Of a DNA stretch of 60,645 bases, positions 11,309-60,645 are shown in pieces (position 1 is the stretch's first letter; each line of letters begins with the position of its first letter). Below the pieces are notes generated by a model. The model had not been told where the DNA came from. It worked only from the letters and a program-made list of their open reading frames with translations, and searched no databases. Origin of the DNA: Clostridia bacterium (GTDB taxonomy: Bacteria; Bacillota; Clostridia; UBA1381); NCBI GenBank assembly GCA_900751685.1, contig CAADSR010000257.1, positions 1 through 60,645 on the forward strand, in the 5' to 3' direction. The position numbers and the translations under genes were made by a program.

Positions 11309-11327
11309 TCGAAAAAGGAGGTTAATT

Positions 11328-12077: not shown

Positions 12078-12080
12078 ATC

Positions 12081-12503: not shown

Positions 12504-12505
12504 GA

Positions 12506-12709: not shown

Positions 12710-12762
12710 TGAAACAGGATCAACTCAGCGATAGAAGAGCTTGATGAAGGGAGGCTAAAGCC

Positions 12763-45434: not shown

Positions 45435-45571
45435 GCTTATCCATCCTTTCATCTGTTTGTATTATATCCCAAACGGGGGCCGATTGCAACTGTTTCACAA
45501 ATTGGCCATAATCCGCATATTATGTAAACATAGGCAGTGCCTATAATCTATAAAAGGAGTGGATTTTTAAT

Positions 45572-45796
45572 ATGTCAGATATTAATAAACCAAGTATGCC
45601 ATCGTGTCCACCGTGTCCTTCCTGTCCGGTCTATCCCTGCGGCTGCGTTGGGTATGCGTATGTTCCGGTTCAGGAATTAGATAAAACATATGATCCTATG
45701 ACAGCATTGAGACAGGGGACCATTTTCCCTGAGTTGGACTTGCCGATGTGCGAATATGGGAAGGTTTGTAAAGCAGGAGGTAGTCTCAATGAATAG
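45572..45796 (+). CDS. cotJA: Spore coat-associated protein CotJA
   Basis: 74 aa, Cys/Pro-rich N-terminus, conserved AYVPVQ...GTIFPELDLP motif. Confidence 0.85.
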   Translation: MSDINKPSMPSCPPCPSCPVYPCGCVGYAYVPVQELDKTYDPMTALRQGTIFPELDLPMCEYGKVCKAGGSLNE

Positions 45797-46040
45797 AACA
45801 GAGATGCTCAATGCATTACAAAGCTATAATTTTGCAGCATATGATATGTTGCTTTATTTGGATACCCATCCAAAGGATAAAAAAGCATTTGAAATGTTCC
45901 GTGACCTTGTAGAAAAAACACGCCGTATGAAACAGGATTTTGAAAACCAATTCGGCCCGCTGACCCCTTATTCCGCAGCGCGTTTTGAAGAATTTAATTG
46001 GTTAGATTCACCATGGCCATGGGAAAAGGAGGGCAATTAA
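45789..46040 (+). CDS. cotJB: Spore coat protein CotJB
   Basis: MNRTEMLNALQSYNFAAYDMLLYLDTHP... typical CotJB. It overlaps the cotJA stop. SD GGAGG. Confidence 0.85.
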   Translation: MNRTEMLNALQSYNFAAYDMLLYLDTHPKDKKAFEMFRDLVEKTRRMKQDFENQFGPLTPYSAARFEEFNWLDSPWPWEKEGN

Positions 46041-46042
46041 GC

Positions 46043-46153
46043 ATGTTTAGTTATAATAAATTTCTAGAATTTCCAATCCGGATCAAAAATCCAAACCCCA
46101 GATTGGCGAATATAGTAATAACACAATATGGAGGGCCAAATGGCAATTGCTAA
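46043..46153 (+). pseudogene. cotJC: 5' fragment of cotJC (Mn-catalase-family spore coat protein), interrupted by the mobile element
   Basis: Good SD (AGGAGGG). MFSYNKFLEFPIRIKNPNPRLANIVITQYGGPNG matches the CotJC N-terminus up to the conserved QYGG.DG. Resemblance then ends and a stop follows 2 codons later. A full CotJC is about 190 aa. Confidence 0.8.
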
Positions 46154-46171
46154 AATGAGGTCAAAGCGGCA

Positions 46172-47608
46172 TCATAAGCGGTATAGGATATCAAATTGCC
46201 GGCCGTCATCGCCTGTCTTGATGATGTCACCTATAAATTCCCTGGCGACCGTATTTTTTTGAACCGGCGAAAGGGAAGGGTCTTTTAAAGCCTCGATGGA
46301 CTGTGATATTTTTTCTTTTAGATTGTTTATTGTTGTTTCCCGGTCTTCTGTAGGCTGCATTTCCTGCTGTATCTGCTGGTTGACCTGGTCGATTTCTTTT
46401 TGAAGCTTTGCTTTGTTCTCCTTGTATTCTTCCAGAGTATCCACTCCATTTTCATATGCTTCTTTAACACGCCTCATACGGTTTTCAGCACGTTTGAGCT
46501 GGTCCTGGTATATTTTCATGTTCGGAGCGGAGGAAGGGTCTTTTTCGGGGATTTTTATGTCTATGCTCCCATTGATAAATCCCTCTAACTGGCTCAGTAT
46601 AAAAGCTTCTACCGTTTCAACTTTTATCCCGCCGTTGCCAGGGCAGGTGCCTTTGGAGCGGTTGTTGCAATATAAGTACCCGTTACAGTTTACGATGGGG
46701 CCGCCGCAGAGCCCGCAGTGGATCAGGCCGACAAGCCAATGGCTGATACTGTCTTTGGGTTTATACCATTTGCGGTAATGTTCCTTTTGTTCCTTCATGC
46801 GTTTTTGCACCTTCTCCCATGTATCCATATCAATGATCGCTTCATGCGACCCATCTTCAATGATGCTGTCCTCGTTATAATAATTCCGCCCGGTCTGCCC
46901 GGTAGGAGTCCAGCGGATCTTCCCGATATAAGCCGGATTGTTCAGCCAATACTCCACGGTCCGGTTCTCGATTTTATTTCCCCGGTGTGTCCGGACGCCC
47001 GCAGCATTCAAGTTTTTTGCGATCCGGAGCATACCGACGCCGGCGCTGTACCAGTCGAACACCTGCTTTATAATCCTGCTTTCTTCCTCTAAGGGCAGCA
47101 GCTGCTTCTCTTTCATCTGGTACCCAAAGGGAGCAATGGCCAAAGGCTCTCCCCGTTTGGCTTTTTCGGTCATGCCCCGTTTTACTTCTTCAGCCAGATT
47201 GATGCTGTAGTATTCATCCATGGCCTCGATCATGGCTTCAAACAGGATAGACATTTTGTCGTCCCCCAGGCTTTCACTGATGGAGATGACTTCAATGCCG
47301 AGCTGCTTCCGGAGCATGGACTTGTATACGATACTATCCTCCCGGTTCCGGGCAAACCGGCTGAACTTCCAAAGGAGGATCGCGTCAAAGGGCTTGGGCT
47401 TTAGTTTTGCGGTACCGATCATCCGGATAAAGCCGGCGCGCTTGTTTACCTTTTTCCCGCTGATCCCTTCATCCATAAAAATGTATTCTTCCGGGATAAT
47501 ATAGCCATTCCGTTTTGCATACTCCCGTATCGCTTTTATCTGGCTGTCAGGACTGTACTCGATCTGGTCATCCGTAGATACACGGATGTATGCAGCAGCT
47601 ATTTTCAT
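46172..47608 (-). CDS. Large serine recombinase (SpoIVCA/SprA/phiC31-type)
   Basis: N-terminal resolvase domain MKIAAAYIRVSTDDQ (catalytic Ser), recombinase domain, zinc ribbon (CGLCGG...C..........C), C-terminal coiled coil. Start at 47608 behind the SD AAGGAG. The stop lies about 20 bp from the cotJC junction. Confidence 0.9.
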   Translation of the reverse strand: MKIAAAYIRVSTDDQIEYSPDSQIKAIREYAKRNGYIIPEEYIFMDEGISGKKVNKRAGFIRMIGTAKLKPKPFDAILLWKFSRFARNREDSIVYKSMLRKQLGIEVISISESLGDDKMSILFEAMIEAMDEYYSINLAEEVKRGMTEKAKRGEPLAIAPFGYQMKEKQLLPLEEESRIIKQVFDWYSAGVGMLRIAKNLNAAGVRTHRGNKIENRTVEYWLNNPAYIGKIRWTPTGQTGRNYYNEDSIIEDGSHEAIIDMDTWEKVQKRMKEQKEHYRKWYKPKDSISHWLVGLIHCGLCGGPIVNCNGYLYCNNRSKGTCPGNGGIKVETVEAFILSQLEGFINGSIDIKIPEKDPSSAPNMKIYQDQLKRAENRMRRVKEAYENGVDTLEEYKENKAKLQKEIDQVNQQIQQEMQPTEDRETTINNLKEKISQSIEALKDPSLSPVQKNTVAREFIGDIIKTGDDGRQFDILYRL

Positions 47609-47753
47609 TATACGTTGCTCCTTAGTTTCAATTCTCACCCCTGTGTGAGGGGCGTCAATATGATTTTATTGTCATTTATGCAGGTCAAACTTGTATTAAA
47701 ACTCATTTTGTGGCAAACATTATTTTATTATGCTGTATAATGCATATAAAATT

Positions 47754-48629
47754 TTACTTTAGTATTTTTTGTTTCTCTTTTAAGAATTCTTCAGCAGTAA
47801 TAATATTATCATCCAATAAGTCCTTTAAAGAACGTAATGCATTTGATTTATCTAGCGTATTTATAGAAATATTTTTATTTTTTTCCTGTTCCATTTCTTC
47901 TATAAAACCAGCAGAAATAATACCAGTTGGTACAGCAACAAGCCCAATTCCCAGTAGTGCAATAATGGAACTAAACAGGCGGCCCCATCCTGTAATTGGA
48001 TAAATATCACCATAGCCAACGGTGGTAAAGGTAGCAATGGACCACCACAGTCCGGAAAAAGCATTCTTAAACACATCAGGCTGTACGGGGTTTTCCACAT
48101 TATACATTAATAAAGAAGAAATCACCATTAATATAAATACAACAATTAAAGAAGAAACCAATTGATTGGACTTTTGTTTTAGAACACCTCCTATGGTAGA
48201 GAGGGCAGAAGTATAACGGTTCACTTTTAATAAGTGGAAGACCCGTAGCAAACGCAGCATCCGGAGGACTTTTAAATCTATTGGCAGAACGAACGGAAGG
48301 TAAAATGGCAAAATAGAAATCAAGTCAACAAAAGCCATAAAGGAAAATATGTACCGGATCCGGGCACGTGTTGGAGATTTATCTGGATATAGATAATCAG
48401 CAGTCCAAACACGTAAGAAGTATTCAATTGTAAAAATAATAACAGATATCGTTTCAATAATAGAAAAAACAGATTTTGTATTTTCACTGATATTAAACGT
48501 AGTTGCAATCAAAAGACAGACATTAAATAAAATTAAGCAAAGTATAAACAAATCGAATATTTTACTTGAAATATCGTTATCTTCTGCAGCTTGAATAATT
48601 TCAAAAATCCGTCGTTTCAGTTTTTGCAT
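47754..48629 (-). CDS. 6-TM voltage-gated-type K+ channel with a C-terminal SHOCT-like domain
   Basis: Selectivity filter TTVGYGD. S4-like helix LRMLRLLRVFHLLK with a basic residue at every third position. C-terminus LRSLKDLLDDNIITAEEFLKEKQKILK resembles SHOCT. Start at 48629 behind the SD GGGGAG. Confidence 0.85.
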   Translation of the reverse strand: MQKLKRRIFEIIQAAEDNDISSKIFDLFILCLILFNVCLLIATTFNISENTKSVFSIIETISVIIFTIEYFLRVWTADYLYPDKSPTRARIRYIFSFMAFVDLISILPFYLPFVLPIDLKVLRMLRLLRVFHLLKVNRYTSALSTIGGVLKQKSNQLVSSLIVVFILMVISSLLMYNVENPVQPDVFKNAFSGLWWSIATFTTVGYGDIYPITGWGRLFSSIIALLGIGLVAVPTGIISAGFIEEMEQEKNKNISINTLDKSNALRSLKDLLDDNIITAEEFLKEKQKILK

Positions 48630-48645
48630 AAGAAACTCCCCTTTA

Positions 48646-49269
48646 TTATTTAACATATTTATTAATTTTATATGTTTTCTTATTATGTATCGGACAATAG
48701 TAGCTGTTGAACATGTGTCCGCTATTGCAGTCAGGCATTAAGCATTTGTGGTCTATACAGTAATTGCAGTGATCATTTGTACAGCGTTCATGGCAGCCAG
48801 TTTCTCTGCATTCGTGTATAAAGCAATAATAACTATTGATTTGTGCGGTATACTGACAATCAGGGATACTACAAAGACGTGTATTTCTAGGAGAAATATT
48901 ATTTTTAATTTGTGGATTAGTGTTTTGTTCTTGTTCTGGCAAACTGTCTTTGTTTGTTGATGGCTCTCCTTCTTCCAAACAGCGTCGTATAAATGCACGG
49001 CCATCCACACTGTTATCATCATTATCTTTATGAATTGTTCTATCCTCCCCACAAGATTTACATTTTGTATCCCGTGGAGCATTGACTTCCTCACAATTAG
49101 GACAAACCCAGCGTACTCCATTTGTAGAGTTAGTCGTAACGGTATTAGGCGATGCGTTGTATCTCATAGGGAAGATGTTTGAATTTAATGCATAATTTGC
49201 AATAATGATAACAGTACATAATAAGAATATTCCCGTAGCTATTCCGGCAATGAATTTTTTCATAAACAT
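48646..49269 (-). CDS. Membrane-anchored Cys-rich protein with zinc-ribbon and duplicated Cys/His motif
   Basis: N-terminal TM anchor. WVCPNCEEVNAPRDTKCKSCG is a RanBP2-like zinc ribbon. The C-terminal motif C-x2-PDC-x7/8-NSYYC-x-IH occurs twice. I recognise no family. Confidence 0.6.
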   Translation of the reverse strand: MFMKKFIAGIATGIFLLCTVIIIANYALNSNIFPMRYNASPNTVTTNSTNGVRWVCPNCEEVNAPRDTKCKSCGEDRTIHKDNDDNSVDGRAFIRRCLEEGEPSTNKDSLPEQEQNTNPQIKNNISPRNTRLCSIPDCQYTAQINSYYCFIHECRETGCHERCTNDHCNYCIDHKCLMPDCNSGHMFNSYYCPIHNKKTYKINKYVK

Positions 49270-49310
49270 AACCCCTTATCTGTAGGCTTTTTATTTATGG
49301 AGATTTGTAT

Positions 49311-50795
49311 TTACATAGATAAAGATTGCCGGTATTCTGTGGCTAACATTGTTTTGTTGAATTCTGCAGTTTTATCTATCTCCTGGACAAGAGTTTCTAA
49401 ATCATCAATATTGACATTAAAAAATTCTTTTCTTAAATTAACTTTGTTTGTTCTTTTATCATTGAGGCGATTATGTAACTCATTTTCCAGGTCTACAGCA
49501 TTTTCAGAAAAGATAAAGCTATGAACATCAAATGTAAAGGGAACAGATGCACTTCCTAGTTCCTTTATACGATCCATTGGATCCAGTCTTCTGGTCATGC
49601 CAATTTTAAAGATAGAATCACCAAAAGATCCTAGATTACTGATAACATAAACATAACCAGCTTTTCCATTTTGTAATTTAGTAATTTCTTCTTTTTTCTC
49701 TTCCACCAAAGATAGTTGTTGTTGAAGTTCCGCTATTTTACTTTGTAGGTCAAGAAGAAGAGTATCGTCAGTGCAACTTTTAATTTGCTGTTGAATTTCA
49801 TCAATTCGATTGATGTATTTTTTTTCTTCTGCTTCAACTTGCTTTTTTTGTTGTTCTAAAGCTTTACGTTCTTCTGCTTCTTGCCGCATTTGATCCCGTA
49901 ATGCTTGTTGTTCTGCACGTTCTTTTTCCTTCTTTATGTAATACTCATATTCTATCTGAATAGCTTTTTCAAATAGGAGTTCTATTTCAGAAATAAAGTT
50001 ATTCAAAGTTGGTGCAATAGACTGATTCCCATCAGAAGCAATTTGAATATATTTTCCAATCATATTTTTAAAGCTTTCCATACATTTATCAAAAGTCGTA
50101 AATTTTAATCCTGTGAGAATATTTTGTAATTCTGCACGTAAGGCAATTACCATCAATTGATAAATGGCACGGTTTGATTTTGTTGTATATCGTTTTTCAT
50201 ATCGTTTCAGTACATCTTCAATAATTTTATTATTTTCTCTATTCAGAGTTCTCAGTTCTTTGATATCCATGGAATGAAGTGGAAGCTCTAGAGAGGGGGT
50301 AAGTTGTTCTAGATCAGTTTCTTCCTCTGAAGTTAATTGTAAGATATTTGAAGGTGTTGTACTAATAAGAGAATAGTCATTTACAATAGTTTGAATTTTT
50401 TTATAAAGAGCTTTACAAATTTTTAATTTATTTTTACCTAGCTCAATTTTTAGTTGTTGGCTCTTATATTCTTTTTGAGCATCCTCAAATTGAAGTTTTG
50501 TCGCCTCACATTTTAGTCGGAATTCCTCTGTTTTATTTTTATAAGAATCTATGAGCTTATCTATTTCTAGTTGAGTTTTTTCTAATTCCGAGTCGCGTTC
50601 TGCAACAATAGAAGACTTCTTTTCATTAATCTGATCAATTTGAATTTTGGTGATTTCGAGTTCTTTCTTTAAATTTTCTAATGCCTGTTTGGTAGAGAGT
50701 ATATATTCTTCTACGTGTTTTAATTCATCTTGTTTTTTTTCAATATCCTTCTCGATATTAAACAAGATTTTTAAACGTTCCCAAAAATTAAACAT
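49311..50795 (-). CDS. DUF4041-like coiled-coil protein with C-terminal T5orf172/MUG113 (GIY-YIG superfamily) domain
   Basis: About 380 aa of Lys/Glu-rich coiled coil, then GYVYVISNLGSFGDSIFKIGMTRRLDPMDRIKELGSASVPFTFDVH...LENELHNRL, which is T5orf172-like. Start at 50795 behind the SD AGGAGG. Confidence 0.7.
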   Translation of the reverse strand: MFNFWERLKILFNIEKDIEKKQDELKHVEEYILSTKQALENLKKELEITKIQIDQINEKKSSIVAERDSELEKTQLEIDKLIDSYKNKTEEFRLKCEATKLQFEDAQKEYKSQQLKIELGKNKLKICKALYKKIQTIVNDYSLISTTPSNILQLTSEEETDLEQLTPSLELPLHSMDIKELRTLNRENNKIIEDVLKRYEKRYTTKSNRAIYQLMVIALRAELQNILTGLKFTTFDKCMESFKNMIGKYIQIASDGNQSIAPTLNNFISEIELLFEKAIQIEYEYYIKKEKERAEQQALRDQMRQEAEERKALEQQKKQVEAEEKKYINRIDEIQQQIKSCTDDTLLLDLQSKIAELQQQLSLVEEKKEEITKLQNGKAGYVYVISNLGSFGDSIFKIGMTRRLDPMDRIKELGSASVPFTFDVHSFIFSENAVDLENELHNRLNDKRTNKVNLRKEFFNVNIDDLETLVQEIDKTAEFNKTMLATEYRQSLSM

Positions 50796-50812
50796 GCCAT
50801 TCCTCCTAAATA

Positions 50813-50840
50813 TTGACAAAATTTTCTGTTGTGTTATAAT
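50813..50840 (+). promoter_or_regulatory. Near-consensus extended -10 promoter pointing rightward, against the flanking genes
   Basis: TTGACA (50813-50818), 16-nt spacer, TGTTATAAT (50832-50840). Confidence 0.6.
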
Positions 50841-50846
50841 ATTTAT

Positions 50847-50922
50847 AGGAGATAATTGGATGGATTTGATAATTGCTCCTAAGTCTACAGATACTTGCAC
50901 TATCTGTAGACTTTTTTATTTT
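50847..50922 (+). ncRNA. Candidate ~75-nt antisense sRNA between the lipoprotein and DUF4041 genes
   Basis: Predicted start about 6-7 nt after the -10 element. It ends in a 12-bp perfect hairpin AGTCTACAGATA/TATCTGTAGACT (50882-50912) plus TTTTTTATTTT on the + strand only. It contains the direct repeat GATAATTG twice. Confidence 0.5.
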
Positions 50923-51838
50923 AATAAAAGTCGGTTAGACTCATTTCAGCGGGTGAAGTGGTATCATCACCTTCAACAATTCCATAGAAGTTATAAGTGT
51001 CCCCAATATCAAACTTGTGGGGAATGGTAGAATATCTTGAATGAATCTCATACTCATTTTTATCATCATCTACTACAATAAAACTTTGACCTCCATAGGA
51101 GGGGGAGCTTGATAAAGTCATGGTTTTTACCCTACCATGTACGATGTTTTTCATTCCATTATTCATAATCCCATTCTTTGCTGTATCGTAATCCAGCTTA
51201 GAATATTCAGAACGTTCCTGTTCAGACATTTTGACGTTATCTTTGCAGATGACATAACAATAATAGTGAGGTTTGTTAAAAATATTATCATAATCACCTA
51301 CAGTGTATACATAAAAATCACCACTATCAAAAACATCACTGATGGAAACGGTGGAAAATGAATTAGAAAGCTTCTGGCTATTATTCTTAGCCGTTTCAAT
51401 ATCCATTGTTTCATCCGTTACCATAAAGGTAGCAGCAAAAACCTCTTTTAATAGAGAAACATTATCAGTATTAAATTCTATTGTCCAGTGCTTCTGATGA
51501 GGTCGGTCTGTATCTGCGAAAAAGCGGATGATATAGTCATTAATATTCAGTTTTATGGATTTATAATTATCAACTATAGAAACCATAGAATCAATAGTTG
51601 CAGACGAGTTTAGCTCTTTCAATGCAGAGACATATTTTTGATATGCCACAGCCATATATTCTGGAATAAGAGAGGTATTGTTAATAATATCTTTCATAAA
51701 ATACTTTGTTTGATTACCGGATCTTTCTGTATACAAAGTAGGGGTTAATGTGGGCGAAGGTGTTACATTAACAGAGCGATTGTTGCTGCATGAAGTAATT
51801 AACACACACACGATTAATAGTATAAATATTTTTTTCAT
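50921..51838 (-). CDS. Lipoprotein of unknown function
   Basis: MKKIFILLIVCVLITSCSNN lipobox. Start at 51838 behind the SD AAGGTGG, 20 nt after the ImmA-like stop. Confidence 0.65.
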   Translation of the reverse strand: MKKIFILLIVCVLITSCSNNRSVNVTPSPTLTPTLYTERSGNQTKYFMKDIINNTSLIPEYMAVAYQKYVSALKELNSSATIDSMVSIVDNYKSIKLNINDYIIRFFADTDRPHQKHWTIEFNTDNVSLLKEVFAATFMVTDETMDIETAKNNSQKLSNSFSTVSISDVFDSGDFYVYTVGDYDNIFNKPHYYCYVICKDNVKMSEQERSEYSKLDYDTAKNGIMNNGMKNIVHGRVKTMTLSSSPSYGGQSFIVVDDDKNEYEIHSRYSTIPHKFDIGDTYNFYGIVEGDDTTSPAEMSLTDFY

Positions 51839-51858
51839 TATTAGTTGCCACCTTAAAT

Positions 51859-52296
51859 TTATAAACATTGAATTCGTTTTTCGATAATTCTTTTATCTAT
51901 ACCGGTGATGCTGACAATTTGTTGCTTAGAAAATTGATTGTTAATATAATTTTTTAAATCAAAATCATCCAATAGCATATAACTGGCAAGTAAATTTGCT
52001 TCATTTTCATATTCGTTCGTTGCAATGTATGTATGCCTGTCTAAAAATATGCGATTCATTTTTGCGTGTAGAAAAGCATGGGAAAGCTCATGAGCCAGGG
52101 TTTGCAACCTGTCATGTGTATTTAATTTTTCATTCAAGTAAATAATTTTTATCCGTTTATAGTGCTGAAAGAATCCATGTGTTCCATTGGGGAGCGGTGT
52201 ATCTATAATAATAATATCCATTGCTTCAGCAAGCTCGTATGGATTTAAAGTTTTAAATCTATATTTTATTATTTTAGCTTTTTTGGCAATATCCAT
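51859..52296 (-). CDS. ImmA/IrrE-family metallopeptidase
   Basis: HEXXH motif in LAHELSHAFLH. 145 aa, immediately downstream of the XRE repressor gene. Confidence 0.8.
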   Translation of the reverse strand: MDIAKKAKIIKYRFKTLNPYELAEAMDIIIIDTPLPNGTHGFFQHYKRIKIIYLNEKLNTHDRLQTLAHELSHAFLHAKMNRIFLDRHTYIATNEYENEANLLASYMLLDDFDLKNYINNQFSKQQIVSITGIDKRIIEKRIQCL

Positions 52297-52310: not shown

Positions 52311-52718
52311 TTATTTTTTATATTTATTAGGTGTATATTTCTCCTTCGCTTTTTCTTTTGCCATAGCCAGTCCAATGCGCATAGCAGATTTTATTTGCTC
52401 TAATTCGTCCTTAGTAGCTGGGACACCATCAAACATTAACCCTTCCTGCTTTTCTAAGTCTGAAAACGTGTTTTCTAAAATAGTTTCAATTTCTCTTTCT
52501 TCTTTATTAATAGAATCTGCTGTAGTTTTGTCTGTACGCTCTAAAAGATAGTCAATAGAAACATCAAAAAAATCAGCTATTTTTTTGAGCATTTCATAAT
52601 CAGGTTGACGTTTGCCTGTTTCATATAAAGAAACAGAACTTTCTGCCACTCCTATTAACTCACCAAATTCTTTCATAGATAAGTCACGTTGGTGTCGCAA
52701 TTCTCTTAATCGAAACAT
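52311..52718 (-). CDS. XRE-family HTH repressor (CI/ImmR-like)
   Basis: LRELRHQRDLSMKEFGELIGVAESSVSLYETGKRQPDYEMLKKIADFFDVSIDYLL is a classic XRE HTH, followed by a C-terminal extension. Confidence 0.85.
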   Translation of the reverse strand: MFRLRELRHQRDLSMKEFGELIGVAESSVSLYETGKRQPDYEMLKKIADFFDVSIDYLLERTDKTTADSINKEEREIETILENTFSDLEKQEGLMFDGVPATKDELEQIKSAMRIGLAMAKEKAKEKYTPNKYKK

Positions 52719-52740: not shown

Positions 52741-52876
52741 TTGTACTCTTTGCAATACGCAAAGTAAATACAACTTTGCGAAATGTAAAGAAAAATAAAA
52801 AATATACTTGACAAATTGCAAAGGTAGTGTTATTATTTAAATATACTTGACGAAATGCAAAGGTGGTGAAAAGATG
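52741..52876. promoter_or_regulatory. Divergent-promoter genetic switch with four 17-bp operator-like sites
   Basis: Sites CTTTGC-N5-GCAAAG (52749-52765), CTTTGC-N5-GTAAAG (52775-52791), CTTGAC-N5-GCAAAG (52808-52824) and CTTGAC-N5-GCAAAG (52847-52863). Rightward promoter TTGACA-17-TATTAT (52809-52837). Leftward promoter TTTACT-17-TACAAT (52769-52741). Confidence 0.6.
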
Positions 52877-53083
52877 AGACAATGGTTAAAAGAGTTGCGC
52901 CTCACAAAAAAAACAACTCAACAGGAATTGGCTAATGAACTTGACGTATCGTTAAGCTATTACAATCAAATTGAAAATGGTGAGCGTCAGAAAAATTTAG
53001 ATTTATCATTGGCAGCAAAATTATCAGAATTATTTGAGATTCCTATTGAATGGATTATCCAGCAGGAAAGTAAATTAGCATAG
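52874..53083 (+). CDS. XRE-family HTH protein (Cro-like)
   Basis: MRQWLKELRLTKKTTQQELANELDVSLSYYNQIENGER. Divergent from the repressor gene. Start at 52874. Confidence 0.8.
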   Translation: MRQWLKELRLTKKTTQQELANELDVSLSYYNQIENGERQKNLDLSLAAKLSELFEIPIEWIIQQESKLA

Positions 53084-53904: not shown

Positions 53905-53968
53905 GTCCTTTTGTGTTGCATAGGACAAATTTTAGAATACATAAGTTATAGGATGGAGGTGTAATAGC

Positions 53969-54199
53969 ATGGGGAAGAAAGCAAAAAGTAATGAATTGCG
54001 GGGAGGTGCGTATTTCCAGATTTCAGATAAGATAGATGAAAATGCAGCTACATATCGGGATAGGATAGCCCCATCATTAATCACGGCGGAGGAATACTTT
54101 GCAACTGTAGAGCCGCAGGAAGAATGGCAAAAGCGTTGTGAGGAGCGCGCCCTGTCAGGCTATTACGGTGTCCCGGTGGAGGTCACTATTGTGAAATAG
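53969..54199 (+). CDS. Hypothetical protein (76 aa)
   Basis: SD GGAGG upstream, followed by a terminator. Confidence 0.5.
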   Translation: MGKKAKSNELRGGAYFQISDKIDENAATYRDRIAPSLITAEEYFATVEPQEEWQKRCEERALSGYYGVPVEVTIVK

Positions 54200-54210
54200 T
54201 AATCAAAAAG

Positions 54211-54234
54211 AGCAGGCTTTATCTGCCTGCTTTT
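54211..54234 (+). terminator. Rho-independent terminator
   Basis: AGCAGGC/GCCTGCT stem followed by TTTTG. Confidence 0.6.
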
Positions 54235-54286
54235 GAGAATAAATTGGACAAGCATGACAAGTATAAATTTTAAGGAGGAAATAAAA

Positions 54287-54535
54287 ATGAAAGCAACAGG
54301 AATCGTGAGAAAAGTAGATGAACTTGGAAGAATCGTGTTACCTATGGAGCTGCGGAGAAGCTTCAATATTGAGGAAAAGGACGCTTTGGAAGTATATACG
54401 GAAGGTGAGAAGATCATCTTGAAAAAGTATGAGCCTGCATGTATCTTCTGCGGGGATTTAAACGATGTGTTCACCTTTGGCGGGAAAAACATTTGCCCAG
54501 AGTGTGCAAAGCGCATAGGGGGAATTACAAAATGA
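54287..54535 (+). CDS. AbrB/SpoVT-family DNA-binding protein with C-terminal zinc-ribbon-like Cys pairs
   Basis: MKATGIVRKVDELGRIVLPMELRRSFNIEEKDALEVY is a swapped-hairpin AbrB domain. The C-terminus has CIFCG...CPEC. SD AAGGAGG. Confidence 0.85.
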   Translation: MKATGIVRKVDELGRIVLPMELRRSFNIEEKDALEVYTEGEKIILKKYEPACIFCGDLNDVFTFGGKNICPECAKRIGGITK

Positions 54536-54801
54536 ATGCAATTGCATTAAGATACTGGATCAAGTCTAAAAAAAGAAAGCGTCAAAAAATCAGTGTCAAG
54601 TGGTTATACATATGGACCGTAGTTCTAGGAGCGGCATCTATTCCTTGGGCGGCTTGGTCTGCGTACCAATGGAGAGGATACAAAGCAGTAGGCGGTGAGC
54701 TATTGATTCCGGCAGTGGCGCTGATGATCATGGTGTTTATCCAGCAAGTGATACGCATAAAAAAATCCGCACCGGCGGCAACCGATGCGGAAACAAGATA
54801 A
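54532..54801 (+). CDS. Small membrane protein (2 TM)
   Basis: ATGA overlap with the AbrB-like stop. Basic N-terminus, then two hydrophobic helices. Confidence 0.5.
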   Translation: MNAIALRYWIKSKKRKRQKISVKWLYIWTVVLGAASIPWAAWSAYQWRGYKAVGGELLIPAVALMIMVFIQQVIRIKKSAPAATDAETR

Positions 54802-54859
54802 ATACATTAAAAAAATATTTACAATACGATTATATTACAAATAGAGGGGAGTGTCAAGT

Positions 54860-54982
54860 ATGCCTTATTATACACAATGCCCCCAATGCGGAGCAAATTT
54901 GGATCCGGGTGAACGGTGTGAGGCCTGCAATCAAGAGCAGGAAACGGCACCAGAGACGAAGGATCACAAGAAGACCGCATAA
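54860..54982 (+). CDS. Small zinc-ribbon protein (40 aa)
   Basis: MPYYTQCPQCGANLDPGERCEACN... SD GAGGGGAG. Followed by two terminators. Below the track cutoff. Confidence 0.45.
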   Translation: MPYYTQCPQCGANLDPGERCEACNQEQETAPETKDHKKTA

Positions 54983-54985
54983 AAA

Positions 54986-55014
54986 GGAGCGGTTTAGAAA
55001 AACCGCTCCTTTTT
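54986..55014 (+). terminator. Rho-independent terminator (first of a tandem pair)
   Basis: 10-bp stem GGAGCGGTTT/AAACCGCTCC, loop AGAA, T-run. Confidence 0.8.
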
Positions 55015-55023
55015 GCACAAAAA

Positions 55024-55052
55024 AATAACAGCTTGGCCGAGCTGTTATTTTA
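55024..55052 (+). terminator. Rho-independent terminator (second of a tandem pair)
   Basis: 10-bp stem AATAACAGCT/AGCTGTTATT, loop TGGCCG, T-run. Confidence 0.7.
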
Positions 55053-55166
55053 ATAGGATGTAGATGTAATGATCTCTACAAATGCTAGTGTTATTATATC
55101 ACATCCGAAGAAAAAATACAAGTCAAATACAAAAGAAAAAAACCTTGATTTTCAGGGCTTTAGGGC

Positions 55167-55910
55167 TTGTTAAAGGAATTAAATCTAGTGACAGGGTGGG
55201 GTGATATATTGCCATACATAAAGCAAACTGTTAGAGCGGGAAATACGATATTTACATATAAGTATTTTAGTTTAAGATACGGACTAAGGAACATTGCCCG
55301 TGGGCCGAATGAGGGGAGATATACAGAGTACCAGAAAAAGATCAATGAGAATCTCCGGAATAAGAAGCTGATATGGTATTTGTGTGAGAACTTTTCAAAA
55401 GGGGACTGGTGGATCACACTGAACTACCGCAGAGGGGAAAGGCCAGAGGATATTATTCGTGCAGAGAGTAATCTCAAAAAAGTATTAGCAAAGCTACGGA
55501 GGCAATTAAAAAAGCAAGGAATAGCGTTTTCCTACATGGCTATGACAGAACAAGGCAAAAAAGGCGGGTTACATCATCATATCGTGATACGGAATAATTT
55601 TGACGTCGGAATGATAATCAAAAATAAGATGTGGCCCCATGGAAAGGTAATAATAGATGATATCTATACAGAGTCGTTATGTGATCTGGCGGATTATTTT
55701 GTAAAGGGAGATTCAAAGGAGAGTGAAAAGCGGTATACCAGGAGCAGGAACCTCCGGCCGCCTAAGATCAAGAAGACCGTAGTACCCGCAAAAGGATGGG
55801 CGAAAGCGCCAAAGCCAAAGAAGGGATACGACATAGCACATCAATATAATGGATTCCATGACTTTTCAGGATATCCATACCAGGAATATACGCAAGTTAG
55901 GAGATGTTGA
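55167..55910 (+). CDS. HUH-type rolling-circle replication initiator / relaxase-like protein
   Basis: Three ordered motifs: WWITLNY (motif 1), GLHHHIVI (HUH) and LADYFVKG (catalytic Tyr context). The start codon is uncertain (TTG at 55167 or GTG at 55188). Confidence 0.6.
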   Translation: MLKELNLVTGWGDILPYIKQTVRAGNTIFTYKYFSLRYGLRNIARGPNEGRYTEYQKKINENLRNKKLIWYLCENFSKGDWWITLNYRRGERPEDIIRAESNLKKVLAKLRRQLKKQGIAFSYMAMTEQGKKGGLHHHIVIRNNFDVGMIIKNKMWPHGKVIIDDIYTESLCDLADYFVKGDSKESEKRYTRSRNLRPPKIKKTVVPAKGWAKAPKPKKGYDIAHQYNGFHDFSGYPYQEYTQVRRC

Positions 55911-55912
55911 AG

Positions 55913-56095
55913 ATGAATGAGTATTATGAGTGCGCCGGGTGTGAACGGGAAAAGCTTCCTTGTGTCATCCGGATCTGTGGGAATGGAAAGAATGCAACAG
56001 AAGCGGATAGAAGGGCATATGAGAAGTGTATCATGCTAAACAGAGTGAACCAATGTAAAACAGGAGGTAAAAATGAATCGAATGTCGGTAGATGA
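55913..56095 (+). CDS. Hypothetical Cys-rich small protein
   Basis: MNEYYECAGCEREKLPCVIRICG... It overlaps both neighbouring genes in operon fashion. Confidence 0.4.
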   Translation: MNEYYECAGCEREKLPCVIRICGNGKNATEADRRAYEKCIMLNRVNQCKTGGKNESNVGR

Positions 56096-56669
56096 ATATA
56101 GGAGGATCGCAGACGATGGAGCGGTCGCATTGCGGAACCGCTGCTCCAACGATAGGGGAAAATTGTTTGAGGACCTTCTTGTTAGAGGGTGCCGGTTCTA
56201 TGAAATACATAAACAAGCGAAAATAGGAAAAGTGTATGAGCCGTATGTTTGCACCAGAATCCTGAAGGGTGGAAGGTTTGAGGGAAGGTTCATAGGCCGG
56301 GCGGAGCCGGACTTTAAGGGAGTGCTGCGGGGCGGACAAGCAATCGCTTTTGAAGCAAAGTCGACCCAGAAAAGCCGGATTCAGGGCAATGTATTAACAA
56401 ATGAACAGGTTGATTGGCTTACAGGCCAGCAGGAATTAGGCGCCCTGGCGTTTGTTGCAGTGAACATACAAGATAAGTTCTTCAGCCTGCCGCTGGATGT
56501 GTGGATCAATATGAAAAAGCTTTATGGAAAGAAGTATTTAATGCCGGCGGATATTGAAGAGTATGAAGTGGTCTATGACGGAGCGGTCCGTTTTTTAGAA
56601 TTTGTACATGGCGGGCTATTAAATAAACAAATGAAGGGAAGTAAAAATGATGTATCAGAAAATAATTGA
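56073..56669 (+). CDS. RecU-like Holliday junction resolvase
   Basis: PDFKGVLRGGQAIAFEAKST resembles the RecU catalytic core (D...G.....FEAK). 198 aa. Confidence 0.6.
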   Translation: MNRMSVDEYRRIADDGAVALRNRCSNDRGKLFEDLLVRGCRFYEIHKQAKIGKVYEPYVCTRILKGGRFEGRFIGRAEPDFKGVLRGGQAIAFEAKSTQKSRIQGNVLTNEQVDWLTGQQELGALAFVAVNIQDKFFSLPLDVWINMKKLYGKKYLMPADIEEYEVVYDGAVRFLEFVHGGLLNKQMKGSKNDVSENN

Positions 56670-56976
56670 TAGGTTTGAAAAGGAATGCGAAAAGGATCCG
56701 AAAGACTATATGATGCGCATCATATGTGATCATACTGTGGATAAATTAAAGGGAGCCCCGGAGGAGACGATGAAGAATATCCTTGAGCAGAAGTTAACAC
56801 TGGCCGGGGCGATTGAAAAAATGAAAGCCGAAGCAGAGAAACAGAAAAGCGGGAACTATGCAGTTTTAACTGATGAAGAGGGATTTGAGATAGTAGACCA
56901 ATATTTTGGTATTAAAGAGCTAAAGGATGATACAGAAGAAGATGGCCAGGCAGTATCTATCTTTGATTTGATTTAA
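56647..56976 (+). CDS. PcfK-like small acidic protein
   Basis: 109 aa. Its size, charge and position immediately upstream of a PcfJ-like gene fit the PcfK/PcfJ pairing. Sequence-level recognition is weak. Confidence 0.35.
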   Translation: MMYQKIIDRFEKECEKDPKDYMMRIICDHTVDKLKGAPEETMKNILEQKLTLAGAIEKMKAEAEKQKSGNYAVLTDEEGFEIVDQYFGIKELKDDTEEDGQAVSIFDLI

Positions 56977-56989
56977 AAGGAGCGGAATT

Positions 56990-59002
56990 ATGAAAGGAGA
57001 AAAAGAATTGTTGTCTCTTCCGGTCGCACCTGCTCCGGCGGTCATGATAATAGAGCCTCAATATAAAGAAATCCCATATTGGAATGGAACATATAAACAG
57101 GCATACACAACATACGGTTATTCCGCAGAGATCATAAGAGATAATATTCTGGCGGTGACGATATATAATTATTTGCGGCAGGCGGAATACCGTGTGTTTA
57201 TCGGGGATTATGACTATGTGAGTCAAAAATACGATAAAGAAAAAAACATATGGTGCAGGTCCACCGCCAAACTGGAAACGGTCTATTGTATGAATGGTTG
57301 GGGAAACAATGAGTTTGTGACCGATGAAAAGACCGTGCAGGCGGCCAAACAATGGCTGGGATGTTTGGCGGAGGAAACAAATAATCCAATCTATAAAATA
57401 GCAGCCTATCTGAATGATATAGGGAAAACAAAATTAAAAAGAAAGTATGATAAGATCCGCAAAAGCATTGATGATATGATGCTGCAGATCCGTCCCCTTT
57501 CGGCGGATTTTGAAAAATGGATCGAAAATGTGCCGATGAAGGGCAGCCGGTATATATTCTATCATTATTCAGGGCGCAAGGAGCAGGATGGATATTGTAC
57601 GCACTGTAACACAAAGGTAAAGGTAAAAGGCGCAAAGCATGAAGCAGCTGGGATCTGCCCTCACTGCCATAGCAAAATCATCTTCCTGTCCTATGGCAAG
57701 AGAAAAAGAGGGTTCACGGATAGCGCAAGCGCTGTATATATCCAGAAAGGGGATGATGATCTTATTTTCCGGCGGTTTTCGGTTGTGTGGGATTATGAAA
57801 TCAACAGCAGCGGAGCGGTCAACTGCAAAAAACACATCTATGAAACAAACAGAAGCTTTTATCTGCAGAATAAGCACTATGAATGGGGAGAGTTTAAAAA
57901 TACAGGGGAATATAGGTTTTGTGTTGGTGAATCAAGCTGGCCGGAAGAGTATTTCAATGCTTGTTCAGGATATATTTACAGCCGGAATTTGAAGCAGGTT
58001 TTTATAAGCATGAACCCTAACAAAAGCTATCTCAAATACATCCCCTATGGGACGCTATTAAAAAATATAGGCGATGTTCGGGCAAAAGAATTTTATGTTG
58101 CTTGCATGAGCTATCCGCAAATAGAGTACTTTGCAAAATTGAAGCTATATCATCTTGCAAGGCAGCTTATCAACGGTAATTATGATTTGATAAGATTCTG
58201 CCTTGAGAATCAGAAATTAAAAGAGATAGGCATTACAAAGCAGACCTTGCCTGATGTGCAGCGATATGATCTGGGATATGAAGAAATCAAGCTATATCAG
58301 GCTTGCAAAAAGTATGGCACGGGGATATTCGAGGAGCTTTTGCAAAAGCGGCGGAGTGGTAAAAGCAGAGAAGTGCAATGTATTATAAAGCTATTGTCCT
58401 ACTTATCCTATGAAAAGATCATGGAATATGTGGAAGAACAAAAAAAGAGCTTAGAGCATCCCTACGGGTTTGATAATACAACGCGTGTATTGGGAGATTG
58501 GTGTGACTATGTTGATAACTGCATTGCACTGGGATGGGATCTGAACGACACCAAAGTACTCAAGCCAAAGGATCTTGAGCAGCGGCATGACATTGCGGTG
58601 CAGTTAGTTGAAATGAAAGAAAATTCGGAGCAGCGGGAGAAGATCGTGCAAAAGTACTATGAGCATATTTATGACCTGTTCTATGAAAGCGGTGATTATG
58701 CGATTACCCTGCCCAGGAATATTCAGGATTTAAAATATGAGGGTGATATGCTCCACCACTGTGTTTACACCAACTATGCGTCAAGCGTTGCAAAGGGGCA
58801 AAGCATCATACTATTCGTCCGGAAGAAGGATCAGTTCTATAGGCCGCTGGCAACGGCTGAAATCGATCCGGAGACCTACAAGCTGATACAGCTAAGAGGA
58901 GAGAAGAACCATACTGTGTCGAAGGAAATTCAGAAATTTGTTGACGGGTACATTACAAAGATAAAGAAATTACAAGCAAAACAGAAAAGGAGTGCAGCAT
59001 AA
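56990..59002 (+). CDS. PcfJ-like protein
   Basis: 670 aa. The C-terminal LKYEGDMLHHCVYTNYASSVAKGQSIILFVRKK... resembles the conserved PcfJ core (EG..L.HCV..Y...G.S.I...R). Confidence 0.55.
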   Translation: MKGEKELLSLPVAPAPAVMIIEPQYKEIPYWNGTYKQAYTTYGYSAEIIRDNILAVTIYNYLRQAEYRVFIGDYDYVSQKYDKEKNIWCRSTAKLETVYCMNGWGNNEFVTDEKTVQAAKQWLGCLAEETNNPIYKIAAYLNDIGKTKLKRKYDKIRKSIDDMMLQIRPLSADFEKWIENVPMKGSRYIFYHYSGRKEQDGYCTHCNTKVKVKGAKHEAAGICPHCHSKIIFLSYGKRKRGFTDSASAVYIQKGDDDLIFRRFSVVWDYEINSSGAVNCKKHIYETNRSFYLQNKHYEWGEFKNTGEYRFCVGESSWPEEYFNACSGYIYSRNLKQVFISMNPNKSYLKYIPYGTLLKNIGDVRAKEFYVACMSYPQIEYFAKLKLYHLARQLINGNYDLIRFCLENQKLKEIGITKQTLPDVQRYDLGYEEIKLYQACKKYGTGIFEELLQKRRSGKSREVQCIIKLLSYLSYEKIMEYVEEQKKSLEHPYGFDNTTRVLGDWCDYVDNCIALGWDLNDTKVLKPKDLEQRHDIAVQLVEMKENSEQREKIVQKYYEHIYDLFYESGDYAITLPRNIQDLKYEGDMLHHCVYTNYASSVAKGQSIILFVRKKDQFYRPLATAEIDPETYKLIQLRGEKNHTVSKEIQKFVDGYITKIKKLQAKQKRSAA

Positions 59003-60033: not shown

Positions 60034-60100
60034 GGGAGATCTCTATTAAGGCTGTTAGCAAGAGGAGCGGTTATCATATATCGAAAGAGAGGGGATTTTC

Positions 60101-60301
60101 TTGAAGAATCCATGTTACCAAAACGGGGATTGTATTCAAAGAAGAGTGGGTTGTCATTCATGTTGTAAGGAATATTTATTATTTTTTGAGGAACAAAAGA
60201 AAAAGAAAGAGAAGCAATACAAGGAGAATGAAACCAGGAATACAGTTGAGTCATTGCATCTGAGCCGGAGAAGCCATCGGAAAAAGAAATATTGTGTATA
60301 A
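60101..60301 (+). CDS. Hypothetical Cys-rich small protein
   Basis: TTG start, CYQNGDC...CHSCC, basic tail. Coding status is uncertain. Confidence 0.3.
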   Translation: MKNPCYQNGDCIQRRVGCHSCCKEYLLFFEEQKKKKEKQYKENETRNTVESLHLSRRSHRKKKYCV

Positions 60302-60312
60302 AGGGGGAGAGT

Positions 60313-60645
60313 ATGAAGAAGGACCATATCAGGGATTATGCCACGGAAGCTTTTCGTTTTTATGCTTCAAAAAAGAAGGAGATGTCTATCACAGGCGACC
60401 TTGCTGCGGACCAGGATATATCCGCCGTGATAGCAACAATGAATGAGCTGAAAAGGGAAGAAGATTTTACCACTTTTGCAGTAGTGGAAAAAGTGTACTT
60501 TTCAGATCCGGATAAAAAGCTTAAAAGAGGAGACATTTCAGCGCGGGTGATAAAGGCCACAATGCTAGGAAATATCAGCGAAAGACAGGCTTACGCATCT
60601 CTTGAAAAGGCCCGGAAAATCTTTGCGAAAAAAAGAGGCCTCAGA
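60313..60645 (+). CDS. Putative HTH (sigma region-4-like) regulator, 3' end outside window
   Basis: SD AAGGGGGAG, then ATG at 60313. The frame is open to the window end. ...ISERQAYASLEKARKIFAKKRGL resembles a region 4.2-type HTH. Not in the ORF track because no stop is reached. Confidence 0.35.
   Translation, partial: MKKDHIRDYATEAFRFYASKKKEMSITGDLAADQDISAVIATMNELKREEDFTTFAVVEKVYFSDPDKKLKRGDISARVIKATMLGNISERQAYASLEKARKIFAKKRGLR

Follow-up and report, generated by a model that had tools for sequence, protein, structure and literature searches.

The window, which is the whole stretch of 60,645 nucleotides that was analysed, carries a cotJ operon whose third gene is broken. cotJA (45572-45796, + strand; PF11007, E 1.4e-14) and cotJB (45789-46040, + strand; PF12652, E 9.4e-27) are intact and overlap by 8 nt, and the 5' fragment of cotJC (46043-46153, + strand) starts 2 nt past the cotJB stop behind the Shine-Dalgarno sequence GGAGG. 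The product of this fragment, MFSYNKFLEFPIRIKNPNPRLANIVITQYGGPNGNC followed by a stop, matches positions 1-35 of PF05067 (E 3.6e-6) and is 43% identical to residues 1-35 of B. subtilis CotJC, for which an approximate query sequence was used. Host codons extend to 46143 (the first 33 codons) and are followed by two phage-derived codons and the stop; the DNA equals that of a conspecific strain whose cotJC is intact (locus L008) up to 46143 and is unrelated to it beyond that point, and the cotJB protein is identical to the one adjoining the intact gene in L008. The sequence search found no 3' part of cotJC within the window.

For the cotJ operon, a putative promoter of the sigma-K type, AC-N17-CATATTAT (45497-45523, + strand), was read from the sequence, and an AC-N16/17-CATATTAT(A) arrangement lies 5' of cotJA in many related loci as well. 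The sigma-K promoters of C. difficile have AC as the -35 and a CATA-type -10 element, and cotJ-like operons are sigma-K dependent in that species (PMC3789822). Together with the data from B. subtilis and from C. difficile, this sigma-K-type promoter suggests that the operon of the window is expressed in the mother cell, and the host, judged from the cotJ operon alone, would be a spore-former.

Convergent with cotJC lies a gene for a protein of 478 aa (46172-47608, - strand), the ORF of which begins, in window coordinates, 18 bp past the stop of the cotJC fragment. Three domains were identified in its product, namely a resolvase domain (PF00239, E 9.6e-28, residues 4-154) with the catalytic motif YIRVSTDDQ (AAAYIRVSTDDQ), a Recombinase domain (PF07508, E 6.5e-23) and a Zn_ribbon_recom domain (PF13408, E 4.7e-7), while residues 352-443 gave matches to coiled-coil-type families only; R9 and S11 are invariant in an alignment of 25 sequences. 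The att sites described below also fit this type of enzyme, being a short quasi-palindrome with a non-palindromic central dinucleotide and with no duplication past the shared core. By its domains, its Ser motif and the form of its att sites, the protein qualifies as a large serine recombinase (LSR) and as the predicted integrase. In the region upstream of the gene (47609-47753, - strand) no sporulation-type promoter was recognised, only weak sigma-70-like hexamers (TTGACC-17-AATCAT and TTGACG-16-GAGAAT) and a CCCCT/AGGGG hairpin; the recombinase genes sprA (PMC4191935) and CD1231 (PMC5025042) are both sigma-A driven. The initial annotation had described an intact, coupled cotJA and cotJB, a CotJC N-terminus with a good Shine-Dalgarno sequence in the ORF at 46043, an end of resemblance at about 46144 with a stop two codons on, an opposing 478-aa LSR 18 bp past that stop and more than 14 kb of mobile-element genes, and our analysis agrees with it in all of these points, the mobile-element genes running to the end of the window.

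Behind the LSR gene on the - strand are four cargo genes, encoding an ion-channel protein with a SHOCT domain (47754-48656), a zinc-ribbon protein (48646-49269), a T5orf172/MUG113 protein (49311-50900), these three assigned by Pfam, and a lipoprotein-like protein of 315 aa (50921-51868); in related elements only the ion-channel gene recurs, with one match (L089), and the other three have none. A lysogeny module follows on the same strand, consisting of an ImmA/IrrE-type metalloprotease (51859-52296; PF06114) and an XRE-family repressor (52311-52718; PF01381). The + strand then carries an early rightward promoter (TTGACA-17-TATTAT with a TG upstream) within the region 52808-53083, a Cro-like HTH gene (52847-53083) and the phage early/replication region (54233-60645) with genes for an AbrB/MazE-fold protein (54233-54535), a Rep-like protein (55167-55910), RecU (56073-56669), a PcfJ-like protein (56990-59002) and a DUF3102 protein (59002-60033), and the prophage runs on past the window end at 60645. 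On an identical contig the element beyond the window encodes a terminase GpA, a portal protein, an S78 protease, a capsid protein, a tape measure protein, a holin and an amidase. With lysogeny, replication, packaging, head, tail and lysis modules in an inventory that covers all of the element except about 9 kb in its middle, the element qualifies by gene content as a complete temperate tailed (Caudoviricetes) prophage, which is probably active.

Public contigs 99.995-100% identical to the window, NODE_69 among them, reach past the window to the far end of the element. On NODE_69 the 3' fragment of cotJC is present, and the genes downstream of it are those of the empty-site strain, that is, locus L008, where attB is unoccupied and cotJC intact. 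The distance from attL to attR is 42,873 bp, which gives an element of about 42.9 kb, and both junctions lie on one 87.7-kb contig. Joined in silico, the two halves form an intact, in-frame CotJC of 205 aa that is 1 aa off the intact allele; the 3' fragment differs from that allele at 5 of 517 nt (99.0% identical) and the flanking DNA is 96.3% identical. The rejoined CotJC corresponds to the 205-aa protein of L008, with a full-length PF05067 match and the metal motifs QYGG..GE and DIGTEE..H, and the L008 protein shares 85-89% identity with many CotJC proteins. When attL, attR and attB are compared, a 15-bp attL core emerges, TGGAGGGCCAAATGG (46129-46143), that is identical in attR, with an inferred crossover dinucleotide GG at 46133-46134, the first two bases of the Gly31 codon. 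This insertion codon, codon 31 of cotJC, lies inside the conserved metal-site motif QYGGP(N/D)GE. attB contains CAATATGGAGGGCCAAATGGAGAGCTTGG and the inferred attP contains ACCATTTGGAGGGCCAAATGGCAATTGC, the attP palindrome being centred on GG with matches at 17 of 20 arm positions. The comparison shows that integration was precise and that recombination between attL and attR would regenerate the full 205-aa cotJC and a palindromic attP. As read from these junctions, what the window shows is attL, the left junction of a complete prophage about 42.9 kb long that was set in the Gly31 codon by its own LSR. Scans of JGI metagenomes with a degenerate pattern of the four att forms and with the core plus phage arm gave 0 matches, even for the attL known from a JGI contig, so the scanned collection does not include these contigs and the zero counts carry no weight.

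The initial annotation had proposed that a 3' fragment of cotJC at the far end, an intact ORF of about 190 aa upon joining and a symmetric att site should be looked for, and all three were recovered, the ORF being somewhat longer (205 aa) and an empty attB being available in the conspecific strain. Its description of a skin/SPbeta-like element holds insofar as a sporulation gene is split and an LSR lies at the element's end; the element is not defective like skin but a complete, probably active prophage, and is therefore closer to SPbeta.

Among the 80 nearest relatives of the LSR in species-representative genomes, 71 adjoin a cotJC fragment in either orientation; these 71 comprise 47 + 24 loci from different species, the relatives being 50-77% identical to the LSR of the window, and the break falls at the same GGNGG of cotJC in every one of them. 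Relatives in IMG/VR occur in both integrated and free attP forms, and the free attP palindromes, found with relatives at 43-56% LSR identity, have GG or CC centres. A mini element of 3,656 bp keeps the LSR and a small ORF, flanked by two halves of cotJC that can be joined in frame. Identity between the LSR of the window and the listed known phage recombinases is below 30%. The closest integrase in GenBank phages, that of bajarodcaudo virus 3 (44% identity), has no QYGG-type attP 3' of its gene, and this phage therefore probably uses another target.

A second gene of interest lies between the Cro-like gene and the replication region and encodes a protein of 76 aa with a pI of 5.1 (53969-54199, + strand). 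If the generic XRE repressor is set aside, no other gene of the element recurs beside the nearest LSR relatives; this one does so in 7 loci, and the remaining matches are to 1-2 loci each. Its C-terminal motif, W-x-K/R-x-x-E-x-x-A-L-S-x-Y-Y, is also present, in some 43 further loci, in an ORF of 55-58 aa immediately 5' of the LSR; the mini element is one of these loci. PHROGs, Pfam and PDB sequence searches assigned the protein to no known family, no homology to SprB or CD1234 was found, and AlphaFold2 returned a poor model (pLDDT 57) from a 3-sequence alignment. We regard it as a candidate recombination directionality factor (RDF), named as such only from its co-occurrence with the LSR.

Upstream of this gene, motif recurrence identified a putative sigma-E-type promoter with a GGACAA (SpoIIID-like) box, GCATAGG-N15-CATAAGTT (53918-53947, + strand). 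The composite motif occurs once in the window, with 0.03 occurrences expected by chance; its other occurrences, at 10 loci, are all 5' of the homologous small gene and amid otherwise diverged DNA. The motif ATAGGACA-N-CATA has 11 independent occurrences in 1.04 Mb, each of them 5' of such a small ORF, and 9 of the 11 ORFs are recognisable homologues of the 76-aa candidate. Two TSS-mapped sigma-E promoters of another species, C. difficile, are similar to GCATAGGACAAATTTTAGAATACATAAGTT of the window, namely CD1884 (GAATAGGACAATTTTAAAGATACATAAAAT) and CD1234 (GTATAAGACAAGTTTATGAGTTTATATTTT), and from this resemblance the window promoter is classed as a putative sigma-E-type promoter; the GGACAA box could be bound by a protein other than SpoIIID. 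A subclade of LSRs at 52-56% identity has a different -35 element, and the promoter motif of that subclade is absent from the window. An intrinsic terminator (54205-54235, + strand; stem AGCAGGC/GCCTGCT and a T run) stands directly 3' of the 76-aa gene, which would therefore form a monocistronic unit.

Because a sigma-E-type promoter precedes the 76-aa gene and a sigma-K-type promoter the cotJ operon, we consider it rather likely, with some reserve, that the prophage is cut out in the sporulating mother cell and cotJC thereby restored, as in SPbeta and skin. In the proposed mechanism, the LSR would be made constitutively and the direction of recombination would be set by its small acidic partner, the candidate RDF. 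The gene of this partner could be transcribed by two routes, namely by read-through from the phage early operon upon induction via the ImmA/repressor switch, and from its own sigma-E/SpoIIID-type promoter as far as its own terminator; given that promoter, synthesis of the partner protein under sigma-E would be confined to the mother cell. There the prophage would be excised and cotJC rebuilt before sigma-K-driven transcription of cotJABC, and the forespore chromosome would retain the prophage.

An unlikely but serious alternative is that the element is an ordinary prophage for which cotJC is a conserved, dispensable safe-harbour attB, the gene being inactivated and the phage leaving upon SOS-type induction only, with no regulatory role. 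This account is favoured by the completeness of the phage, which has an ImmA/XRE switch and an early promoter, by relatives known as free attP genomes and by the coexistence of lysogens and non-lysogens within the species, where prophage-bearing and prophage-free strains stand side by side as with any prophage. Conserved coding motifs are moreover frequent phage targets that provide an attB in many hosts, and plain inactivation could be tolerated, since CotJC is not essential in B. subtilis and cotJC paralogues are present in C. difficile. It accounts less well for an LSR-associated small gene that is kept, with a sigma-E-type promoter and a private terminator, across elements otherwise sharing nothing, or for the non-phage 3.66-kb mini element that still has the LSR and the small ORF and whose cotJC halves are intact. 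The rearrangements reported in the literature consulted, those of sigK, spsM, spoVFB, spoVR and gerE, in each of which the element is excised in sporulation, also speak against it; excision of the yabG element is growth-phase dependent.

That the element has lost the ability to excise and cotJC has become a permanent pseudogene of the lineage is very improbable. The exact attB-side and attP patterns of this phage had 0 matches in IMG/VR, a single viral collection, which would suit such an immobile remnant, but the LSR ORF has kept its full length, its catalytic Ser motif and each of its three domains, every phage module is present, the attL and attR cores are identical, neither cotJC fragment has a frameshift or a stop, the 3' fragment is more conserved than its flanks, and the same prophage is present in strains about 0.9% apart (locus L007). 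That a host contig and a phage contig were wrongly joined in assembly is still far less credible, and we give it practically no weight: only the general risk of metagenome assemblies speaks for it, and against it stand an identical attL junction in independent ENA, JGI, NCBI and Logan assemblies, the matching attR on the same 87.7-kb contig and the same architecture in about 70 other species.

A wider proposal is plausible but tentative. In many uncultured gut Clostridia cotJC would be developmentally rearranged; temperate phages and mini elements that together form a large, uncharacterised clade would hit the Gly-Gly codons of the metal-binding motif, with the orientation set by the polarity of the central dinucleotide and each element carrying a small RDF of a new family under a sigma-E/SpoIIID-type promoter; and at least two further recombinase families would act at two other cotJC hot spots (DIGT and TEE), so that some genomes would have cotJC in three pieces. 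The notion of a prophage as developmental switch, known from skin and SPbeta, would be widened to a structural coat gene and to abundant uncultured gut spore-formers, whose transmission between hosts is governed by sporulation. An attB/attP pair, an LSR clade whose target is strictly conserved, and a candidate RDF with a predicted mother-cell promoter are now defined, and the LSR, the att pair and the candidate RDF may be of use as recombinase tools. On the side of annotation, the cotJC 3' fragment of this element is a trap: in a deposited viral MAG it is listed as a 'Mn-containing catalase' encoded by the phage, but it is the terminal part of a host gene that was split and no auxiliary viral gene.

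The phenomenon itself is already known. The initial annotation did not name cotJC among the classic examples, yet interruption of cotJC by phage- or skin-like elements is listed by Abe et al. 2013 (via Kohm et al.) and, for Laceyella sacchari, by Galperin et al. 2022. In the parts of this literature that we found, these are survey notes on other lineages (Bacilli), in contrast to the Clostridia considered here, and they give no att sites, recombinase clade, RDF or promoter of cotJC elements; the element of the window is a new, well-documented example. The phage phi027 of C. difficile, considered as a precedent, adjoins a cotJC-like gene (cotG) and does not lie inside one.

By analogy, the design would be that of SPbeta (sprA/sprB) and of the C. 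difficile skin element (CD1231/CD1234). SPbeta, which splits spsM of B. subtilis and encodes SprA and SprB, is likewise an active full-size prophage in a mother-cell sporulation gene with the LSR at the element's end; its recombinase is sigma-A driven, and the SprB gene is expressed by two routes, read-through of an inducible phage operon and a short monocistronic RNA that starts at a mother-cell promoter of the gene itself (PMC4191935). The element of the window has the same layout, with the candidate RDF in the early operon under its own sigma-E-type promoter and terminator, but differs in its host class (Clostridia), in its target (cotJC) and in a candidate RDF unrelated to anything named, and its excision is predicted here. 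The skinCd element in sigK of C. difficile shares with our proposal a clostridial host, a constitutive LSR (CD1231) and a small acidic factor, CD1234, which has 72 aa, a pI of 5.5, a sigma-E promoter with a SpoIIID site and a TSS located 14 bp ahead of its start codon (PMC5025042); its promoter, GTATAAGACAAG...TATATTTT, resembles GCATAGGACAAA...CATAAGTT of the window, although no sequence similarity between the two factors is established. Whereas skinCd is a defective element of 14.6 kb in a regulatory gene essential for sporulation, the element of the window is a complete phage of 42.9 kb whose target, a structural coat gene, is probably dispensable. The yin element in yabG of C. botulinum is prophage-like, with a serine recombinase and a putative small RDF under a putative sporulation promoter (PMC10747680), and its target is, as in the window, a coat-related sporulation gene of a clostridial host; yin is confined to a single strain, whereas the LSR clade of the window and its target are common to dozens of species.

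The left junction of the element agreed to the base with the initial annotation, which had described cotJC as split and facing an opposing large serine recombinase, when examined by ORF calls, Pfam and tblastn. The cotJA (45572-45796, plus strand) and cotJB (45789-46040, plus strand) genes overlap by 8 nt and were confirmed by Pfam as CotJA and CotJB. They are followed by a 36-aa ORF (46043-46153, plus strand), which has GGAGG upstream, starts 2 nt past the cotJB stop and corresponds to positions 1-35 of the Mn-catalase/CotJC profile. A tblastn search with the CotJC sequence matched these 35 N-terminal residues only, and the rest of cotJC was not found in the window. The ORF of the 478-aa recombinase (46172-47608, minus strand), carrying Resolvase, Recombinase and Zn_ribbon_recom domains and the catalytic motif YIRVSTDDQ, ends 18 bp beyond the stop of the cotJC 5' fragment. 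The operon is preceded, in the window and in its relatives, by AC-N16/17-CATATTAT(A), a predicted promoter of the sigma-K type, which agrees with the sigma-K dependence of the cotJ-like operons of C. difficile.

Exact-protein look-ups with the recombinase, with CotJB and with a gene late in the window were used to find public contigs carrying the same locus. One of them, ena:ERZ1311309 NODE_69 (87,678 bp), is 99.995-100% identical to the window across 21.4 and 11.6 kb and can thus be taken to represent the same genome. An intact CotJC query found on it the 3' fragment that had been proposed to lie at the far end, a 163-aa C-terminal CotJC fragment (P0055), and the genes after it (HTH, MatE, GFO_IDH and HD) are those that follow intact cotJC in L008, a conspecific strain without the element and with 96.3% identity in the shared flank. 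L008 and the window are identical as far as 46143 and unrelated beyond. The core common to attL and attR is TGGAGGGCCAAATGG, the distance between the two cores is 42,873 bp, and joining of the two halves in silico, as had also been suggested, gave an in-frame 205-aa ORF differing by one residue from the intact allele. With 5 nucleotide differences in 517, the 3' fragment is more conserved than the flanks. The attP deduced from these sites, TTTAGTAATTACCATTTGGA[GG]GCCAAATGGCAATTGCTAAA, is symmetric at 17 of 20 arm positions, and its central GG (46133-46134) represents bases 1-2 of the Gly31 codon; this exact attP was not found in IMG/VR. Three Logan contigs from different runs (L010, L011 and L013) carry the empty-site (attB) sequence, each ending at the contig edge exactly 30 nt past the first core base, which is the k-1 overlap of a k=31 graph and the point at which the attB path joins that of attR. 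These ends give a hint that such samples contain empty as well as occupied sites, by strain mixture or excision alike. The cotJC 3' fragment and the candidate directionality factor of the element are also present in GenBank as viral-MAG proteins (P0129, DAW23800.1, and P0263), labelled 'Mn-containing catalase [Caudoviricetes sp.]' and 'OUT domain-containing protein', respectively; what is labelled a viral catalase is the terminal part of an interrupted host gene.

Inward from attL, the element was found to contain the recombinase, four cargo genes (an ion channel, a zinc-ribbon protein, T5orf172 and one unknown), an ImmA/IrrE protease alongside an XRE repressor, and an early region in which a strong divergent promoter and its Cro-like gene are accompanied by small early genes, Rep, RecU, a PcfJ-like gene and DUF3102. 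The NODE_69 continuation adds the large terminase, portal, S78 protease, capsid, tape measure, tail proteins, holin and amidase, and attR is preceded by a small number of reverse-strand genes, one of them for a ParE-like toxin. By gene content, read apart from about 9 kb in mid-element, this is a complete-looking temperate tailed phage. Reverse-strand cargo occurs at both prophage ends (window 47754-51868, minus strand, and L015 5178-9816) and may represent defence or host-modulating genes; it comprises a SHOCT-domain ion channel of the voltage-gated type, a T5orf172 protein containing a long coiled coil, an unknown protein of 1124 aa and a ParE-like toxin pair. An AbrB/MazE-fold protein (54233-54535, plus strand; …GIVRKVDELGRIVLPMELRR…) with a zinc-ribbon-like CxxC…CxxC at its C-terminus is classed by PHROGs as an antitoxin, and could alternatively be a transition-state-regulator mimic.

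Homologues of the recombinase were aligned and the best 80 loci, one genome per species, were fetched; they share 50-77% recombinase identity and come from uncultured Clostridia, Oscillospiraceae, Ca. Ornithomonoglobus, Ruminiclostridium, Lawsonibacter and C. methylpentosum. Among these best 80, 47 have the recombinase convergent with cotJA-cotJB-cotJC(1-~32), the same as in the window, 24 have the recombinase followed by co-directional cotJC(~28-end), and the other nine are mostly contig ends or hybrid sites. The host break in all resolved cases is ...CA(A/G)TA(T/C)GGNGG|. The recombinase-proximal arm is alike in convergent and co-directional loci and the polarity of the central dinucleotide is the sole difference, which accounts for the two insertion orientations; flipping this dinucleotide within an attP that is nearly palindromic thus seems to invert the direction in which the element integrates. 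A further 68 relatives (43-56% identity) were obtained from IMG/VR, among which 22 are integrated beside cotJC, at least 13 are free genomes in which the recombinase stop is directly followed by a clear palindromic attP (centre CC in 7 and GG in 6), and 16 are contig ends, the same phage group being recorded in both states, for example in L121 versus L119 and L140 versus L129. With integrated and free forms both present, the QYGG site of cotJC is, on these sequences, the attB used by temperate phages that are active and form a large family. Hybrid sites were also observed: L029 (~3783-3900) has, after the recombinase, a phage arm, GG, an arm and the 3' end of a second convergent recombinase, and L072 (~9383-9460) has a hybrid or attP-like site after the recombinase, which suggests tandem or nested elements at one attB.

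The same cotJC site in L064 (5821-9477) is occupied by a 3,656-bp non-phage mini element encoding only a recombinase, a 58-aa RDF-like ORF, a 100-aa ORF and two proteins of 215 aa (HTH) and 225 aa; when joined, the cotJC halves of this locus give an intact 189-aa protein in frame. At least two more insertion hot spots exist in cotJC, at the DIGT and TEE codons (second metal motif, approximately residues 60-65), with breaks after GATATAGGTA in L019, L021, L027, L037, L038 and L082 and after ACAGAAGAA in L083, L090, L095, L110, L115, L119 and L156. The 3.9-kb insert of L082 (9380-13808), lying between cotJC residues 29-62 and 54-199, encodes a distinct 515-aa serine recombinase (11212-12759) and has a 12-bp shared core, CCGATATAGGTA; the gene is therefore in three pieces, and L115 and L119 have a 38%-identical recombinase at the equivalent position. 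Many CotJC homologues leave the query after HFQRFGEA (~residue 176) with a short KLVI-type end or an ILTxSNRF… tail (P0045, P0072 and P0073, with 1111 member sequences, and P0074, P0078, P0091, P0107, P0118 and L082 13311-13802), which could be natural C-terminal variation or another junction.

When all window element ORFs were compared with the 80 loci, a 76-aa ORF (53969-54199, plus strand) recurred beside the closest relatives of the recombinase, in 7 loci; the others, the generic XRE repressor aside, had matches in 1-2 loci each. Its C-terminal motif, W-x-K/R-x-x-E-x-x-A-L-S-x-Y-Y, is also present in a 55-58-aa ORF that about 43 loci of the 52-56% subclade, the mini element included, carry immediately upstream of the recombinase. 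The protein has an acidic pI of 5.1, searches of Pfam, PHROG and PDB found no relative, its structure model was too poor in quality for use, and its family has just about 15 representatives among 1.8 billion proteins. An intrinsic terminator (54205-35) lies directly downstream, and a predicted sigma-E-type promoter, GCATAGGACAAATTTTAGAATACATAAGTT (53918-47), directly upstream, where a GGACAA box agrees with the consensus that SpoIIID recognises in B. subtilis. The composite motif ATAGGACA-N-[C/A]ATA occurs once in the window (0.03 expected by chance) and 11 times independently in 1.04 Mb of related loci, always ahead of such a small ORF, at 40-60 nt from its start (106 nt in L027 alone); 9 of the 11 ORFs are recognisable homologues of the candidate, the surrounding DNA is otherwise diverged, and IMG/VR loci add four cases. 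Since elements without another common gene are unlikely to share a phage-encoded regulator, this promoter is probably read by host factors. The sigma-E reading leans on C. difficile: the promoter closely matches the TSS-mapped sigma-E promoters of CD1884 (GAATAGGACAATTTTAAAGATACATAAAAT) and of the skin RDF gene CD1234 (GTATAAGACAAGTTTATGAGTTTATATTTT) (Saujet et al. 2013, Table S7), that of CD1884, a conserved hypothetical gene, being almost identical. In the 58-aa-ORF subclade, two terminators are followed by TTGTTATTT-N15-CATAAAAT, a near match to the C. difficile spoIIID promoter, TTGTTATAT-N16-CATATATA (Saujet et al. 2013, Table S7). Upstream of the recombinase gene the window has sigma-70-like hexamers only, and the 52-56% subclade has a canonical TTGATT-N17-TATAAT 120 nt upstream of the start (L031-L078 etc.). 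An inverted repeat, AAAAAGCGGC...GCCGTTTTTT, brackets the latter and could serve as operator or attenuator; the CD1231 promoter is likewise drawn with surrounding inverted repeats (PMC5025042).

These data establish that LSR-type integration into cotJC is precise, with the halves kept intact and a phage clade specialised on the site, and that it is, on paper, reversible. We consider it fairly probable that excision occurs in the mother cell, where a constitutive recombinase and a sigma-E-driven factor would rebuild cotJC in a host that is presumably able to sporulate. The 76-aa protein would act as the directionality factor of the recombinase, being made upon lytic induction by repressor cleavage and early-operon read-through, and in the mother cell from its own sigma-E/SpoIIID-type promoter; cotJC would be rebuilt ahead of sigma-K transcription of the operon, and the prophage would be retained in the spore. 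Plain lysogeny, in which the phage would occupy the same attB without developmental excision, seems rather unlikely, and the small remaining probability falls jointly to an immobile remnant or an artefact. An artefact of assembly is excluded because this attL recurs in ENA, JGI, NCBI and Logan assemblies made independently; among its carriers are a strain with 99.1% identity to the window and a variant prophage whose recombinase is 90% identical.

Restoration of sporulation genes by LSR-mediated excision is well established for sigK, spsM, spoVFB, spoVR, gerE and yabG. The initial annotation did not count cotJC among the classic examples; it has in fact already been named as a frequent integration target in the preprint of Kohm et al., with reference to Abe et al. 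2013, and a skin-like element in cotJC of Laceyella sacchari is recorded in the Galperin et al. preprint. In the searchable literature we found no paper with att sites, recombinase clade, directionality factor or experiments for cotJC elements, and the window feature is therefore regarded as an unusually well-supported new instance of a known phenomenon; what it adds to the survey notes found is how broad the clade is, together with the small-protein family and the predicted sigma-E-type promoter of that family. The element is nearer to SPbeta than to skin, which is defective. In SPbeta, sprA is driven by sigma-A, and sprB is expressed by SOS read-through and from a private mother-cell promoter giving a 0.2-kb transcript; this demonstrated logic is the same as that proposed here for the cotJC element, and the same holds for CD1231 and CD1234 of skinCd.
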